Shown piece by piece: positions 300-33,870 of a DNA stretch of 52,357 nucleotides. The notes under the pieces are model-generated. The model worked only from the letters and a program-made list of their open reading frames with translations. It was not told the origin of the DNA and did no database searches. The stretch is from Planctomycetota bacterium (GTDB lineage: Bacteria; Planctomycetota; Planctomycetia; Pirellulales; UBA1268): contig JBAXUW010000003.1 in assembly GCA_037129495.1 (NCBI GenBank), positions 1 to 52,357 of the forward strand. Direction: 5' to 3'. A program made the translations under genes and the position numbers. The number at the start of each line of letters is the position of its first letter. Position 1 is the first letter of the stretch.

Positions 300-3167
<2,868 letters not shown>

Positions 3168-3189
3168 TAGCATCGCCAAAGGCCTCCCT

Positions 3190-4803
3190 GTGCGCACGAT
3201 CGAGATCTACGACACGACACTCCGCGACGGCTCACAGGGCGAGGGCGTCAACTTCTCTCTCGCAGACAAGCTGGCGATCACGAAGCGGCTCGACGAGGCT
3301 GGCATCGACTTTATCGAGGGCGGCTACCCGCTCTCGAATCCTAAAGACGCCCAGTATTTTACCCGTGTCCGTGAACTTAAAATCCGGCACTCACGGGTCT
3401 GCGCGTTTGGTATGACTCGCCGCCGCGGCCTGACAGCCGCCGAGGATCCGGGCATGAAGGCCCTTCTCGACGCCGGCACGAGCGTCATCACGATCGTTGG
3501 CAAGACATCGGCGTTTCACGTGACGGAGGTGCTCGGCGTGTCGCACGCGGAAAACCTCGCCATGATCACCGACACAGTCCGCTTCCTCACCGACTCCGGT
3601 CGGGAGGTCTTCTACGACGCGGAGCATTTCTTCGACGGCTGGAAGATCGACTCGGCTTATTCCGCCGAGACGATCCTGGCCGCCTCTCGGGCCGGTGCCA
3701 CTCGAGTCGTGCTCTGTGATACCAACGGCGGCACATTGCCCGCCGAGGTTGCCCGCATGGTCCGTGAGGCGGCGGCCGCGCTTGAGGCTGGCGGCGCAGG
3801 GGTGCCCCTGGCGATCCACTGTCACAACGACTGTGATCTCGCGACAGCCAACTCGCTTGCGGCAGTCGCCGCCGGCGCGGTGCAGGTGCAGGGCACGATC
3901 AACGGCATTGGCGAACGCTGCGGCAATGCCGACCTGATTTCGGTCGTCGCCAATCTCGCGGTCAAGCTCCCCGGCTATGCCGTGCTCGGTGGCGGCGGCC
4001 GCGAAGGTAGTGGCACAGCCCACCTAACGGAGCTTTCCCGGTTTGTCTACGAAACCGCGAACATGAGCTACCGTCCCGGCCAGCCCTTTGTCGGAACGAG
4101 CGCCTTCGCCCACAAGGGTGGCATGCATGTGCATGCTGTGGCCAAGGCGACGGAATCGTACGAACACATTCCGCCCGAGAGCGTCGGCAATTCCCGGCGG
4201 ATTCTCGTGAGCGAGTTGTCGGGTCGGTCAAACATCGCCGCGCTCGTCCATCGGCCAGACGTGAAGAACGATCGGGTGATCCTCGACCGGGTGCTGGCGG
4301 AGGTCTGCCGACTGGAGAACGAAGGCTGGCAGTTTGAGGCAGCGGGGGCATCCTTCGACCTGCTTGTAGACCGCTGTGCGGGCACGTTCAGGCCGGCTTT
4401 TTCAAAGCTCTCCTACAACGTGACGGTCGACAGCCGCAACGAGTTGGCAGCAGACGCCGGTGGTGCGGATGTGACGACTGAAGCCACAGTGAAGCTGGTG
4501 ATCGGCGGCGTGCTGCTGCACGAGGTGGCCGAGGGGGATGGGCCGGTGAACGCCCTCGATGCGGCGCTTCGCAAGGCGCTCGCTGCGACCTTCCCTGCCC
4601 TGTCGCGGATGCACCTGCTCGACTACAAGGTCCGCGTGATCAACGCTCAGGAAGGCACGGCCGCGAAGGTCCGCGTATCGATTGAGAGCACCGACGGCGA
4701 CTCCGTCTGGGGCACGGTGGGCGTGAGCGAGAATGTGATTGAGGCCAGCTGGCTTGCGCTTGCTGATTCATTCGAGTATTTTCTTTCGCGGTCAGTCGGC
4801 TGA
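3190..4803 (+). CDS. cimA: Citramalate synthase (LeuA/CimA family)
   Basis: IYDTTLRDGSQGEG, HCHND, NGIGERCGNA, AHKGGMH, and a C-terminal regulatory domain (EGDGPVNALD, LLDYKVR). GTG start at 3190, 22 nt after the ftsK stop. Confidence 0.92.
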   Translation: MRTIEIYDTTLRDGSQGEGVNFSLADKLAITKRLDEAGIDFIEGGYPLSNPKDAQYFTRVRELKIRHSRVCAFGMTRRRGLTAAEDPGMKALLDAGTSVITIVGKTSAFHVTEVLGVSHAENLAMITDTVRFLTDSGREVFYDAEHFFDGWKIDSAYSAETILAASRAGATRVVLCDTNGGTLPAEVARMVREAAAALEAGGAGVPLAIHCHNDCDLATANSLAAVAAGAVQVQGTINGIGERCGNADLISVVANLAVKLPGYAVLGGGGREGSGTAHLTELSRFVYETANMSYRPGQPFVGTSAFAHKGGMHVHAVAKATESYEHIPPESVGNSRRILVSELSGRSNIAALVHRPDVKNDRVILDRVLAEVCRLENEGWQFEAAGASFDLLVDRCAGTFRPAFSKLSYNVTVDSRNELAADAGGADVTTEATVKLVIGGVLLHEVAEGDGPVNALDAALRKALAATFPALSRMHLLDYKVRVINAQEGTAAKVRVSIESTDGDSVWGTVGVSENVIEASWLALADSFEYFLSRSVG

Positions 4804-28937: not shown

Positions 28938-29036
28938 GAGCGAGCCTGAGTTCTGACGGATTGCGCCGCCCGCCGTATACTTTTGTCCGCGGAATTACTG
29001 CGACCCGCAGTGCAAGCAGACCACGAAAGCCAAACC

Positions 29037-30245
29037 ATGACCGACATCGACAGCCCTGCGATCTACGACCAGTCCCCGTCCCCAAGCGGGCCGCACACAG
29101 ACCGGATCGTCCAAGAGATTCAGTGGAGCGAGGCGCTGCCCTGGTGGGTGTTGTTTCGCGCTGCCGGAGTCGCCTTCTCGCCGACAGTCATCCTGCTCGC
29201 CGCCCTCGGGTGTCTGGCCACATGGGCCGGGTGGTCACTGGCCGACAGCATGCAACTTGCCGGCGTTCCTCAGCCGGCCGCCACTGGACTGGCCCTGCCC
29301 GCGGAGCCGAGCGGCGTGTTGAATGACGTGTTGAATAGTGGTCGCCTGCTGGCTCCGAGCCAGCAGGTGCTGCCCTGGCTGCTCGGCATCCTCGACCGCC
29401 TACCGATCGCGGCCGCCGACGTGCTGCGGTTGGTGGCGGTGCCGTTTCGGCCAGCAGCCACGTTTGCCCAGATGTTTGGCGCCCTCGTCCGGATCGGCTG
29501 GTTCGTGCTCGTCTGGTCAATCTTCGGCACGGCGATCACCCGGCACGTGGCACTTGCACTTGTGGGTGAAGAAACCCAGGGGCTCAGCGGAGCGATCTGG
29601 TACGGCACCCGCAAGTGGCTCGCGTCGTTCAACGCAGTTGCCTTCGTGCTGCTCGGTATTCTCAGTCTGTCTGTGCCCGGGGCGATCCTCGGCCTGCTGA
29701 TGCGGACCGACATCGGCCTGGCTTTGGCGGGTGCGATCTGGCCGCTGGTGCTTGCAGGCGCGATTGTGGTCGCGATCCTGGCCATCGGCATGGTGGCCGG
29801 CTGGCCGCTGATGGTGGCGGCTGTCGGTGTCGAGCGCGGCGATAGTTTTCAGGCCATCTCCACGTCGTTTTCCTATCTCTACCAGCGTCCGCTGCACTAC
29901 GCCTTTTATGGGCTCATTGCCGCGCTGGTGGCCCTGCCGGCGCTCGCTGCCGCGGGCGTCTTCGCCGATGCAACCGGCACGCTGGCTATGTGGGCGGCAA
30001 GCTTCGGGATGGGGCACGAGCGGACCAAGGCCGTCATGGAGGGAATCAGCGCGGGCGGCGCTGGTGTGCCCTGGGGCGCCCGGGCGATTGGCTTCTGGAT
30101 GAGTGGCCTCGAGGCGCTGCTCTCGTCGTTTGGCTGGGGCTATTTCTGGGCGATCGCTACGGCGGGCTACCTGCTCCTGCGGAAGGATGTGGACGGCACA
30201 GAATTTGACGAGGTGGTGGTGGAAGAGCCCGTTGGTGGATCCTGA
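29037..30245 (+). CDS. Multi-pass membrane protein of unknown function
   Basis: About 8 hydrophobic segments; motifs DSFQAISTSFSYLYQRPLHY and YLLLRKDVDGTEFDEV. Start 28983 or 29037. Confidence 0.75.
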   Translation: MTDIDSPAIYDQSPSPSGPHTDRIVQEIQWSEALPWWVLFRAAGVAFSPTVILLAALGCLATWAGWSLADSMQLAGVPQPAATGLALPAEPSGVLNDVLNSGRLLAPSQQVLPWLLGILDRLPIAAADVLRLVAVPFRPAATFAQMFGALVRIGWFVLVWSIFGTAITRHVALALVGEETQGLSGAIWYGTRKWLASFNAVAFVLLGILSLSVPGAILGLLMRTDIGLALAGAIWPLVLAGAIVVAILAIGMVAGWPLMVAAVGVERGDSFQAISTSFSYLYQRPLHYAFYGLIAALVALPALAAAGVFADATGTLAMWAASFGMGHERTKAVMEGISAGGAGVPWGARAIGFWMSGLEALLSSFGWGYFWAIATAGYLLLRKDVDGTEFDEVVVEEPVGGS

Positions 30246-30330: not shown

Positions 30331-30750
30331 TTATGGGCACCAGCGTTTGATGATGGCAGGGAAGCCACCGAGGAGTTCGCCGCGGCTAACCGACGCATCG
30401 GCACCGGCGGCCTCCGCCTGCTCGAGCCGATTTTTTGCTACGTGTGGTCCGAAAGCGATCAATCGAGCCGCCTTGCCCGCCGCCGACCGCTGCGGCTCGA
30501 TGATCGCCAGCACCCGCGTCACCAGTACGGCCGGGTCGCCGCTCACCGCCTGCAGATCGAGCAGCACAAGGTCGTAGGGCCCGCTTGGCAGTGGATCGTC
30601 GAGGCTGCGGAGCGTTTCCAGCCGGCCTCCGGCCTCCCGCGCCAGTCCTGCAATCCGACTGGTCGAGAGCAGGTCGGGCGAGACGAGCAAAATTCGCAGT
30701 CCGTCGCCACGGTCATCAGTCGGCAGTGAGTTGACAATCGAGAAAGTCAT
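30331..30750 (-). CDS. Stand-alone atypical response-regulator receiver-like protein
   Basis: RILLVSPDL, YDLVLLDL (phospho-Asp position), IAFGPHV, AGADASVSR. ATGA overlap with the upstream P-II gene. Confidence 0.7.
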   Translation of the reverse strand: MTFSIVNSLPTDDRGDGLRILLVSPDLLSTSRIAGLAREAGGRLETLRSLDDPLPSGPYDLVLLDLQAVSGDPAVLVTRVLAIIEPQRSAAGKAARLIAFGPHVAKNRLEQAEAAGADASVSRGELLGGFPAIIKRWCP

Positions 30751-31094
30751 ACAGCCTCCGGGCCACGCACTTCACGGTAGATCTGCACAGCCTCGTCGAT
30801 CGGCAGCACGAACAGGCTGCCGGCCTCACTGTGGGAATCAGCACCAGCATTCTGTGGCGACCCCAGCTGCATCGCCTTTCGGATCGTCTCAACGGCCCGC
30901 TTGAGAAAATCATCGTTGACCGCGATTTCCATCACCGACTCCTGAACAAGGCCATGGCTCTCGTGACCGACTCCGCCGGGAAGATCGTAGCCTTGGGCGT
31001 CGCAGACCGTGAGCCGGGTGACGTGGACGGCGGCCAGAGCCTGCCTCACCGCTTCCAATTGCGCGGGTCTGAGCACGGCGACAACAAGACGCAT
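30747..31094 (-). CDS. Divergent P-II (GlnB/GlnK-fold) family protein
   Basis: MRLVVAVLRPAQLEAVRQAL..TRLTVCDAQGY..MEIAVNDDF..LFVLPIDEAVQI..RGPEAV follows the P-II scaffold, but the ligand-binding loops are altered. Confidence 0.8.
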   Translation of the reverse strand: MRLVVAVLRPAQLEAVRQALAAVHVTRLTVCDAQGYDLPGGVGHESHGLVQESVMEIAVNDDFLKRAVETIRKAMQLGSPQNAGADSHSEAGSLFVLPIDEAVQIYREVRGPEAV

Positions 31095-31149
31095 GGTGGG
31101 GACTTCACAGAGATGCGACTGACAAAAGTGAGGCGGCAATCCGGCCGGC

Positions 31150-33870
31150 TCACGGGCTGGGGAGTTCGAGACTGGCGTCGAGCACCTTCCGAATCCGGCC
31201 CTGCATTTCTCCCAGATGTGCCCGCGAATAATCGTCGAGCTTCACATCGTTCTTGGCCAGCAGTGTACCGATCCGGCCCTCGAGTGACCGCAACTGGGCC
31301 GCCGCGATCGCCTGAGCGTCGGGAGACCCACCGGCGGAGCCGATGGTCAGGGCAGATAGCCGTGAGACATAGAGCCGCTGCAGGCCGCGCCGGAGGCTGC
31401 CCACCGCCGGCTTGCGAACGGTGTAGTCGCCGGGACCGGTCGCATCGACCTCTGTCATAATCGACTTCGTGAGCCGATCGAGTAGCTCAGCCGTGGTGAA
31501 GGCGTCTTGGTCGGCGGGCACCTTCAGCTCGCTGTCGCGGATCCGCTCGAGCGTGAGCGGATTGAGTAACCGGCCGAGCACGCGGCCCTGCCACATGAGG
31601 ATCACATCGTGGATGGGATAGTCTTCCCGGTCGGGTGGATGACTGCCCCAGTGCATCCAGTTGGTGGCAACGAGCTGGTTGTAGAGCTCGGCCGAAAACG
31701 AAAAGGGCTGAGCGCTAAACATCTGTCGCTCAAGCAGCGCGAGCGCATCCCGCTGCTTCTGCGGCTCGACCACCTTGAAGGGCGCGGGGGCGCTGGCATC
31801 CCCCTTGTGGCTCCGCGATGTATAGAGGCCGCCAACGAGCCGCGAGGCCGTATACATTGACTGCCCGTGGGCTGACAGCAAGACGCCAAACGCCTGCCGC
31901 ACCCGCTCATAGCTCTGGTCCTTCGCCGTCAGGCGATCGGCGATCAGCGGCATCACCTGTGCCACCAGTTCGGCACGGCTCCGGGCGAATTCCAGCGGGT
32001 CATTGCCGAGATCAAACCGGTTGGAGAGCGGGTCGGGGTCGCCAAACTCGGTTTCCTCGTCGGTGGCGTAAGCGAGCACTGCCTCGCCGCTACGGGTCGC
32101 GATCTTCTCAAGTTCCGGGAGTTCTCCCTCCGGAGTACCGGCAGTGATCGGCTTGTACCCATACTCGATCGCCCACATGTCGTAGGGGCCGAGCTTTGCG
32201 GTGTAGTAGTCGCCCTGTGTCTTACCTTTCGGCACGATGTTGACCGGGATGTAGTCCATCACGCTCGTGCTCGCCCCCGACTGCGCGGTCTTGGTGACAT
32301 CATTGATATCAGCCAGCGACTTGAAGGCGCTGCCCTTGAAGTTGTGCCGCAGGCCGAGTGTATGGCCCACCTCGTGCATTGCCACAAGCTTGAGGCCTTG
32401 CATCACGAGCTTCTCCTTGTTGTCATCCGAGAGCCCGCCCTCGGCAGCGGCCGCCAGCGCCGTGGCCGCCAGGGCAGTCTCGCGGGCATGGCCGTCGAAG
32501 AGCGCGCAGGCGCCGCAGGAATGAGCCCCACCGTGGCCGTGACGCGCGCTCCCACGGGGTTCGCCCCCGGTCATTCGGGCCACGCTCTGCGGGGTAAACG
32601 TCTCGTATTCTGTCCGCCAAAATCGCAGAAAGTCGCCGTCGAAGATGATGTCTGCATCGAGAATCTGACCCGTCCGCGGGTTCACGCGGGAGGGACCCAT
32701 GGCGAAGCTTGCGCCTGCAGTGATCCAGCGAAACGTATTGTAGTTGACGTCTTCGGGATCCCAGTCGGTTACGTCCGGTTGCTGGCGGACCTCGATGGCG
32801 GTGGCGAAGCCGGCCTTCTCGAAGGCCTCGTTCCAGGCCTCGATCCCCGCGCGGATCGGCTGCCGATACTTAAACGGCACCGTCTTTTCGATCCAAAACA
32901 CGATCGGCTTCTTGGGCGGCGATATGGCCGCCGTGGGGTCGGACTTCTCGAGGTTCCAGCGATTGATGAAACGGACAAACCGGTCTTCATCCACGTTCTG
33001 CGAGAAGTCTTTGAGGGCAGTCACGAAGTAACCGACACGGTTATCGGCCAGCCGCGGCTTGTAGCTATTTTGCGGCAGCAGGCTCAGCGAATAGTGAATC
33101 ATCATCGTGGCCCCCCGCGAATCGGGTACTGTGTCGATGTCCTGCGTGCCGCTCGAGCCGTAGGTTGCGGCCACCTCAAGCTCCACGTTGTCTGGAAAAC
33201 CCTTGACGCGGGCCCAGGTCGATCGGTCGCGGGCAAATGAAAACCCGGGCAGCACCGTAGAAATCTGGGGTAGGTCGGTGAAGAAGATCGGCGCGAGGTC
33301 GATGACGTAGCCACCGGAGGGGCCGGTCGTTGCGATCGGCACGCTGAAAAGCACGCTGTCGGTGTAGGCAAGATCGACCGCCTTCTCCTCGGGGCTCCCC
33401 TTGTCGGCGAAGAATCGGACGTTCTTGCGGACAATTTGTATGTTGTCGTCGACCTTGCGAAACTGCCAGACCCAATCATCGCCGAAACCGAGGCTCATGC
33501 CGCCAAGCAGGAAGCGGTCACCGATCCCGCGGGCGATTGAGATCAGCACAAAAAATTCCTTGCCGAGCAGGGCGTCGGTGAGTTCCGCATAGACCTTGTC
33601 GTCCTTCCGCCAGAGCGGAATCAGGCCATTGATCTTGGTGGCGTCTTTGAGCAAGACGGCAAAGGCTGGTTTGCCGCCCTTGGATTCGGCCTTGGATTCG
33701 GCCTTGGACTCGGCTGGGGCGGCATCCTTAGCGGGGGCGGGCGACGTGGGCGCGGGCGCATCGGCAGTTGGTTCTTGGGCCGCGACCATGCCTGTTGTTA
33801 GAAGGGTCATCATGGTCATCATGGTCATCAGCAGAAATACAGCCACCACCATCGTCCGCCAGTTGTTCAT
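31150..33870 (-). CDS. Secreted zinc-dependent metalloprotease (DUF5117/DUF5118/DUF4953-type)
   Basis: HEVGHTLGLRHNF zincin motif with SVMDY Met-turn, PRLADNRVGYF, YDMWAIEYGY, signal peptide. Confidence 0.9.
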   Translation of the reverse strand: MNNWRTMVVAVFLLMTMMTMMTLLTTGMVAAQEPTADAPAPTSPAPAKDAAPAESKAESKAESKGGKPAFAVLLKDATKINGLIPLWRKDDKVYAELTDALLGKEFFVLISIARGIGDRFLLGGMSLGFGDDWVWQFRKVDDNIQIVRKNVRFFADKGSPEEKAVDLAYTDSVLFSVPIATTGPSGGYVIDLAPIFFTDLPQISTVLPGFSFARDRSTWARVKGFPDNVELEVAATYGSSGTQDIDTVPDSRGATMMIHYSLSLLPQNSYKPRLADNRVGYFVTALKDFSQNVDEDRFVRFINRWNLEKSDPTAAISPPKKPIVFWIEKTVPFKYRQPIRAGIEAWNEAFEKAGFATAIEVRQQPDVTDWDPEDVNYNTFRWITAGASFAMGPSRVNPRTGQILDADIIFDGDFLRFWRTEYETFTPQSVARMTGGEPRGSARHGHGGAHSCGACALFDGHARETALAATALAAAAEGGLSDDNKEKLVMQGLKLVAMHEVGHTLGLRHNFKGSAFKSLADINDVTKTAQSGASTSVMDYIPVNIVPKGKTQGDYYTAKLGPYDMWAIEYGYKPITAGTPEGELPELEKIATRSGEAVLAYATDEETEFGDPDPLSNRFDLGNDPLEFARSRAELVAQVMPLIADRLTAKDQSYERVRQAFGVLLSAHGQSMYTASRLVGGLYTSRSHKGDASAPAPFKVVEPQKQRDALALLERQMFSAQPFSFSAELYNQLVATNWMHWGSHPPDREDYPIHDVILMWQGRVLGRLLNPLTLERIRDSELKVPADQDAFTTAELLDRLTKSIMTEVDATGPGDYTVRKPAVGSLRRGLQRLYVSRLSALTIGSAGGSPDAQAIAAAQLRSLEGRIGTLLAKNDVKLDDYSRAHLGEMQGRIRKVLDASLELPSP
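33679..33714 (-). repeat. 12-bp in-frame tandem repeat x3 (AESK)
   Basis: CTTGGATTCGGC, CTTGGATTCGGC, CTTGGACTCGGC. Confidence 0.8.
33805..33830 (-). repeat. 9-bp tandem repeat x3 in the signal-peptide coding region (MMT)
   Basis: GGTCATCAT twice plus GGTCATCA. Confidence 0.8.

Follow-up and report, generated by a model that had tools for sequence, protein, structure and literature searches.

Few metabolic sensors are as widespread as the P-II proteins, and to our knowledge nearly all of their described biology operates through the binding of nucleotides and 2-oxoglutarate and through the T-loop. One group, PII-NG, is reportedly linked to genes for heavy-metal or cation efflux pumps. In Polytomella, the P-II protein of the PII-NAGK complex has lost its effector response and has turned into a permanent component of the target (PMC7027753). 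Here we describe a P-II family gene on contig JBAXUW010000003.1 of a planctomycete, located in a window (the whole stretch of DNA that was analysed) of 52,357 nucleotides; the order to which this genome and its relatives belong is probably Pirellulales. The gene is a real, well-conserved P-II-fold family member of uncultured lake planctomycetes, and its product has lost essentially the whole canonical site for Mg-ATP, ADP and 2-oxoglutarate together with the modification site. The gene and the relevant parts of its product are as follows.

30747–31094, minus strand: degenerate P-II family gene, 115 amino acids plus stop codon, NH2-terminus MRLVVAVL

30948–30986, minus strand: T-loop remnant, residues D37–L49, a variable linker of 13 amino acids without R38, Q39 or Y51

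30819–30863, minus strand: B-loop remnant, residues G78–G92, an extended variable linker in place of GxxGDGK, with K90 replaced by S93

30750–30785, minus strand: COOH-terminal motif Q104-I-Y106-R107-x-V-R110-G-P-E-A-V, which replaces the RxR C-loop

Residues were numbered by alignment to the canonical GlnB of the same genome, which is collinear with the numbering of Escherichia coli GlnB. The alignment bore out the substitutions that had been listed in an initial annotation of this DNA. The segment GFGRQKG has become GYDLPGG, with D, L and P at the positions of G37, R38 and Q39; the T-loop is six residues shorter (13 versus 19), lacks Y51 and contains two histidines, H44 and H47; E52 occupies the position of K58; the B-loop IGDGKIF has become SEAGSLF, preceded by an extended stretch, with S93 in place of K90; and the C-loop RIRTG has become QIYRE. 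The residues at the T-loop base that ordinarily hold Mg-ATP and 2-oxoglutarate (R38, Q39 and K58) are accordingly L38, P39 and E52, and within the family these positions are variable or occupied by E, Q or D. The segment corresponding to the T-loop modification motif Y-[KR]-G-[AS]-[AE]-Y, which includes Y51, is deleted, and the protein thus has no target tyrosine although the genome encodes GlnD. The B-loop signature T-x3-G-[DY]-G-[KR]-[IV]-[FW], a PROSITE pattern that covers G84, G87, D88, G89 and K90, was not matched by SEAGSLF. The canonical C-loop contacts with the ATP phosphates, R101 and R103, are replaced by Q104 and Y106, both of which are invariant, and the segment carrying the COOH-terminal motif was predicted to be helical (residues 99–110). 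This pattern of loss is common to the whole orthologue family and not peculiar to one sequence.

Membership in the P-II family and retention of the beta/alpha scaffold, both of which had also been proposed initially, were confirmed by profile and structure searches. The window protein matched the Pfam profile P-II (PF00543) with 47.5 bits (E value of 2.4e-12, cut-off of 25), and all 30 aligned orthologues matched the profile as well. Its scores of 29.7 and 29.0 bits against the NCBIfam GlnB/GlnK equivalogs fell far below the cut-offs of 202 and 181, respectively. A single-chain model obtained with AlphaFold2, for which the 30 orthologues served as input, had a predicted local distance difference test (pLDDT) score of 83 and the element order beta-alpha-beta-beta-alpha-beta, with strands at residues 2–8, 27–36, 49–59 and 93–98 and helices at residues 10–20 and 61–77. 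Low confidence was confined to two loop regions, the linker that replaces the T-loop (T-linker; pLDDT of about 63) and residues 82–88 (below 50). Structures of GlnZ, GlnK and PII headed the Foldseek results with a probability of 1.00. The best genuine sequence match among solved structures was an archaeal-type GlnK1 of Methanosarcina (8tge chain J, 55 bits). The window protein thus lies within the P-II superfamily and lacks every defining feature of GlnB/GlnK sensors that was tested. With regard to the initial proposal of a P-II-fold trimer that no longer senses ATP, ADP or 2-oxoglutarate, the fold held up, the canonical binding and modification sites are lost, and the loss of sensing is supported by the sequence; the trimeric state is presumed.

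The top-ranking sequence match in the PDB was the TAL effector 3ugm_A (67 bits). We rejected this match as an artefact, given that its score was the sum of 23 sub-threshold matches; residues 45–75 of the window protein, ESHGLVQESVMEIAVNDDFLKRAVETIRKAM, weakly resemble each 34-residue repeat of the TAL effector and gave rise to the misleading rank.

A word-indexed search returned 641 relatives of the window P-II, the best 120 of which were 58–76% identical to it and similar in length; the labelled sources among these best 120 were metagenome bins of Planctomycetia. The alignment of 30 orthologues (61–79% identity to the query) contained 34 invariant columns, all in the scaffold and the COOH-terminus and including Q104, Y106, R107, V109, R110 and G111, and both loop regions varied in sequence and length. 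Among 115 orthologues that were parsed residue by residue, the T-linker ranged from 5 to 24 residues (median of 10) and the linker in place of the B-loop (B-linker) from 5 to 30. The position of K58 was occupied by E, Q or D in every one of the 115, and that of K90 by R in 75, S in 22, G in 10 and K in a single sequence. The motif (V)Q(I/L)YR(D/E)VRG was present in 109, with the remaining six carrying one change each. Pairwise ratios of nonsynonymous to synonymous substitution (dN/dS; Nei-Gojobori method) were 0.08–0.3 for the core and about 1 for the loops (about 0.5–1.3 for the closest pairs), values that are rough given the high third-position content of guanine and cytosine and the uncertain loop alignment. 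Neither stop codons nor frameshifts were apparent in more than 600 orthologues and in nine of ten genomes of the family. Purifying selection therefore acts on the scaffold, and what were once the T- and B-loops have become unconstrained linkers; QIYRxVRGPEAV is a new invariant COOH-terminal motif, also under purifying selection. These results remove, for the gene as a whole, the relaxed selection or pseudogenization that the initial annotation had named as an outcome that would speak against it.

The origin of the window P-II became apparent from its gene neighbourhood. Gene order was constant in four metagenomic relatives: a Met-zincin, the P-II, a gene of 130–140 residues, a membrane protein of 410–420 residues, yacG, a Zn-ribbon protein, grpE, dnaJ, groEL and groES. 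In G370, a genome from another family of the same order, the block groES-groEL-dnaJ-grpE-Zn-ribbon-yacG-membrane protein-receiver-P-II is the same, and the P-II at the equivalent position has a canonical T-loop and GDGKIF. This shared synteny block identifies the window P-II as the positional orthologue of a P-II that is spread across the order and apparently works as a sensor. The family profile was matched in 145 of the 151 genomes of the order, mostly with two copies per genome, one of the window lineage and one of the GlnK type; a single window-lineage P-II accompanies the GlnK type both inside and outside the family.

We then aligned 34 P-II copies taken from families other than that of the window together with 12 members of the window family. 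In the other families, G41, R47, G48, Y51, K58, G84, G87, D88, G89 and K90 were each kept in all 34 copies, as were Q39 in 33, Y46 in 30 and R38 in 28; of the two C-loop arginines, R101 was kept in 10 and R103 in none. In the 12 members of the window family, the canonical sensing residues were lost, with G41 and G48 remaining in a few and G89 in seven. In a quick maximum-likelihood search with IQ-TREE, the window family formed one clade (support of 93) that has a long stem and is separate from GlnB/GlnK. The sensor parts have been lost specifically in one family of small-genome lake planctomycetes. The receiver-linked P-II proteins of G466 and G370 share with the window protein the same locus, a downstream CheY-like gene and a neighbouring membrane protein; they are 40–48% identical to it, have C31, D32, A33 and Q34 as well as NDDFLERT in common with it, and have likewise already lost R103 of the C-loop. 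The two groups differ in that the receiver-linked proteins of the other families keep the complete T-loop, K58 and GDGKIF, whereas the window family lost these parts and gained QIYRxVRG. Judging from their residues, the former look like working sensors of ATP and 2-oxoglutarate.

Five genes of the P-II family are present in the genome that contains the window (3.8 Mb in 496 contigs): a canonical GlnB with Y51, an amtB-linked GlnK (contig C445), a P-II of 102 residues, a P-II-like gene beside an SbtA-like permease, and the window gene. The genome also encodes GlnE in addition to GlnD. Outside this locus, canonical GlnB, amtB-glnK, GlnD and GlnE thus provide for ordinary nitrogen sensing. The 102-residue P-II (C45:5810-6618) has intact GFGRQK and GDGKIF and lacks the COOH-terminal segment; it is preceded by a Cys-containing open reading frame that, as judged by eye, is possibly ferredoxin-like. 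At C119:107-1721, a P-II-like gene of 129 residues directly follows the gene for the SbtA-like permease of 401 residues, a probable SbtA/SbtB-type pair in a heterotrophic planctomycete.

Directly downstream of the window P-II lies the gene that follows it in the conserved block.

30331–30750, minus strand: stand-alone gene with a CheY-like receiver fold, 139 amino acids, whose start overlaps the stop codon of the P-II gene (ATGA)

The overlap suggests that the two genes are translationally coupled. The receiver-like gene had more than 470 orthologues (63–85% identity), and the AlphaFold2 model of its product (pLDDT of 83) showed the (beta-alpha)5 fold of CheY, with the receiver domains 1dcf, 4hnr, 1nat and 7qz2 retrieved by Foldseek at template modeling (TM) scores of 0.6–0.7. 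The window protein gave no match to the Pfam profile Response_reg (PF00072), and its homologue in G466 scored 26.5 bits versus the cut-off of 30.2; precomputed PF00072 matches were nevertheless available for many of the order-wide homologues. When the receiver quintet was mapped by eye on the model, D26 (approximately D13) and D65 (approximately D57) were invariant, D12 corresponded to S, T, A or P, T87 to G101 in an invariant AFGPHV, and K109 to R123. The family carries AFGPHV at the usual Thr/Ser site and SRG at the usual Lys-Pro site. It is a divergent CheY-like branch found across the order and beyond.

Of the 151 genomes from the order, 125 carry the receiver-like gene; in at least 78 of these 125 cases, a P-II gene on the same strand immediately precedes it, at a distance of –10 to 372 bp. 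With regard to natural fusions of the two proteins, long P-II-plus-extension proteins proved to be mostly read-through junk, and the long multi-stretch matches from the same search are probably the same TAL-repeat artefact as that described above. In one truncated sequence (P0166), a GlnK-type P-II continues at its COOH-terminus into LLLCDDLIFTSRIIGTA, a stretch similar to the beginning of the receiver-like protein; this may be a natural fusion or a frameshift.

Two further genes of the block lie close to this gene pair.

28983–30245, plus strand: multi-pass membrane protein, 420 amino acids, with homology from about position 29073, convergent with the receiver-like gene

31150–33870, minus strand: DUF5118/DUF5117/DUF4953 Met-zincin (Pfam), 906 amino acids, upstream of the P-II gene and ending 55 bp before its start

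Profile searches assigned no Pfam or NCBIfam family to the 420-residue membrane protein, which has at least five hydrophobic segments. Its gene was present in 146 of the 151 genomes of the order; in 72 of 122 genomes no more than 1.5 kb separates it from the receiver-like gene, and in 71 it is downstream of and convergent with that gene; in one relative the membrane gene is inverted and still adjacent. The protein has invariant W48, E50, P53 and W54 near its NH2-terminus and the pattern YFWA..Y.LLR..VDG.E.DEV at its COOH-terminus. The actual target of the P-II/receiver pair may be this membrane protein. At locus L056 (GCA_900174595.1, 3001-6348), which belongs to a more distant lineage, a P-II with a degenerate T-loop faces a member of the same membrane-protein family, and no receiver gene intervenes; this P-II keeps the B-loop lysine (EDGKIF for GDGKIF), and a DacZ/DAC diadenylate cyclase (DAC) gene lies 2.8 kb away from it.

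The Met-zincin was considered as a core functional partner and rejected, given that the upstream gene changes between families: it is a Met-zincin in the window family and G466, a glucuronyl esterase in G370 and DsbD in G330. A scan of the intervals between the zincin, P-II and receiver genes for promoters and terminators was uninformative. Since the interval between the Met-zincin stop codon and the P-II start is only 55 bp (31095–31149, minus strand) and contains no promoter-like or terminator-like site, the three genes may be on one transcript.

The P-II gene has been lost altogether in one lineage. In G500, a genus of the same family (locus L024, G500:C30:12000-16500, 1408-4500), the gene is cleanly deleted: the Met-zincin open reading frame ends where that of the receiver-like protein begins, no trace of the P-II is left, and the receiver-like protein retains all of its invariant residues. 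The P-II of a close relative (L057) is further decayed and lacks the QIYR motif as well. A single syntenic site thus presents a natural series of P-II genes that are sensor-intact, sensor-dead but conserved, further decayed, and deleted.

We propose that the sensor-dead P-II scaffold acts constitutively in an accessory role, as a partner to the receiver-like protein and possibly also to the membrane protein, an explanation to which we give about an even chance. In this mechanism, the trimer scaffold, which is assumed here, would be retained, and the window P-II would no longer report ATP, ADP or 2-oxoglutarate. Instead, it would work with the co-translated receiver-like protein as a partner or adaptor whose action does not depend on a signal, and might do the same with the adjacent membrane protein; contact would be made through the body of the protein and the new COOH-terminal surface and not through a T-loop. 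Its role would be accessory and modulatory, not essential, given that G500 deleted the P-II and yet kept the receiver-like and membrane genes intact.

Several points weigh against this proposal. The link of the P-II to the receiver-like and membrane proteins is drawn from gene adjacency, and trimer formation is a premise of the model. Either gene can also occur without the other: the receiver-like gene is missing from one family of the order that has the P-II (f3), and the P-II is missing from another family of the class that has the receiver-like gene (f4). The dN/dS values, as mentioned, are rough. In addition, Q51/E52, Q104, Y106, R107 and R110, which are invariant in this family only, together with the residue at the position of K90, which is mostly R, surround the former ligand cleft and would also fit a remodelled binding site.

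This last point bears on the possibility that the protein is a re-tuned sensor, in which the cleft between subunits was rebuilt for another effector such as a cyclic nucleotide or dinucleotide, with loops that came to resemble those of PstA/DarA by convergence. The family-specific invariant residues occupy former ligand positions, arginine stands at the K90 position in 75 of the 115 orthologues, PstA likewise combines a short T-loop with a long disordered B-loop (PMC12435418), and a diadenylate cyclase is encoded in the genome as well as near the degenerate P-II of L056. The proximity at L056 is a single case, however, and the Pfam profile CdAMP_rec was matched only weakly, by 4 of the 30 members at E values of 0.005 or worse. 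Moreover, a hypervariable stretch stands where the glycine-rich, phosphate-binding B-loop used to be, the residue at the K90 position is not fixed, and the QIYR motif was lost in L057 and the gene itself in one genus. We therefore regard a re-tuned sensor as possible but unlikely. A more specific version, in which the window P-II is a new P-II-derived receptor whose cleft, formed by Q51/E52, R93, Q104, Y106, R107 and R110, binds another messenger (for example, a cyclic dinucleotide) and passes the signal to the CheY-like and membrane proteins, is doubtful.

The gene might alternatively be on its way out, as a relic with little or no function that is kept by its operon position alone. The loss of the sensor parts, the deletion in G500, the further-decayed COOH-terminus in one relative and the small, streamlined genomes (3–4 Mb) would all suit such a relic. 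The low dN/dS of the core, the 34 invariant columns among 30 sequences, the absence of stop codons and frameshifts across the orthologues and the family genomes, and the gain of a new invariant motif argue against it, and we consider it improbable.

P-II paralogues form heterotrimers, as do GlnB and GlnK of E. coli, and the initial annotation had raised the possibility that the window protein poisons such assemblies. As a dominant-negative subunit, it would enter heterotrimers with canonical GlnK or GlnB and reduce the number of functional T-loops. Although its core strands are conserved and both GlnB and GlnK are encoded in the same genome, it is only 38% identical to that GlnK, its nearest paralogue in the genome, and gave no BLAST match to that GlnB; furthermore, its sensor-intact orthologues constitute a separate order-wide lineage whose context (receiver-like gene, membrane protein) is unrelated to amtB or glnA, and nothing ties expression of the window gene to that of nitrogen genes. 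Such a role is thus decidedly improbable. Sensing of a metal by H44 and H47 of the shortened T-loop, also suggested initially, is contradicted by the orthologue comparison and hardly credible, given that the T-linker is an unconserved, free linker of variable length with a dN/dS of about 1 and has no histidine in 54 of the 115 orthologues.

The present analysis extends the initial annotation in three respects, with the addition of the coupled CheY-like gene, orthology to a sensor-intact P-II in sister families, and a lineage that deleted the gene. The natural series at this site makes it possible to test what a P-II scaffold does without its sensor and which surface other than the T-loop carries its function. 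We found no description in the literature of the window P-II family or of a P-II/receiver pair in planctomycetes, nor of the order-wide module of a P-II, a stand-alone receiver-like protein and a membrane protein; this module could represent a new P-II target in planctomycetes. The proteins are presently annotated as 'P-II family nitrogen regulator' or 'nitrogen regulatory protein P-II', and for the window family a nitrogen-regulator label is probably misleading.

Comparison with the described systems places the window protein apart from each of them. With canonical GlnB and GlnK, it shares the Pfam family, the ferredoxin-like fold, and the motifs (V)TRLT, EIAVNDxF, (I/L)FVLP and COOH-terminal GPEA(I/V). 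It differs from them in its hypervariable loops, in the loss of R38, Q39, Y51, K58, the B-loop from G84 to K90, R101 and R103, and in that its gene is not adjacent to amtB or glnA. SbtB and other transporter-linked P-II-like proteins resemble it in that a P-II gene neighbours a gene for a membrane protein. The window membrane protein belongs to no known transporter family, however; the genes are convergent and not in one operon, and the receiver-like gene usually lies between them. The neighbours of the window P-II are a Met-zincin, a receiver-like gene and an uncharacterized membrane protein, rather than a co-operonic SbtA bicarbonate transporter. With regard to the PII-NG group, no efflux pump gene is present in the conserved neighbourhood.

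PstA/DarA proteins, the c-di-AMP receptors of PF06153, are P-II-like trimers, and the pattern of loop lengths in the window family is similar to theirs (PMC12435418). The B-linker of the window family is unconserved, however, and the family derives from a GlnK-like P-II rather than the PstA lineage; the window protein itself gave no match to PF06153 in the profile search, in which the 30 orthologues were also scanned. A precedent is provided by PII-NAGK of Polytomella parva, in which a P-II that no longer responds to energy or carbon effectors acts as a permanent partner, so that a sensor has been turned into a subunit. The Polytomella P-II is nevertheless described as having a canonical plant sequence and still transmits glutamine (PMC7027753), whereas in the window protein both the binding residues and the T-loop are gone. 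The planctomycete locus may thus illustrate how a protein that began as a metabolic sensor can be retained when it is blind to its signals.

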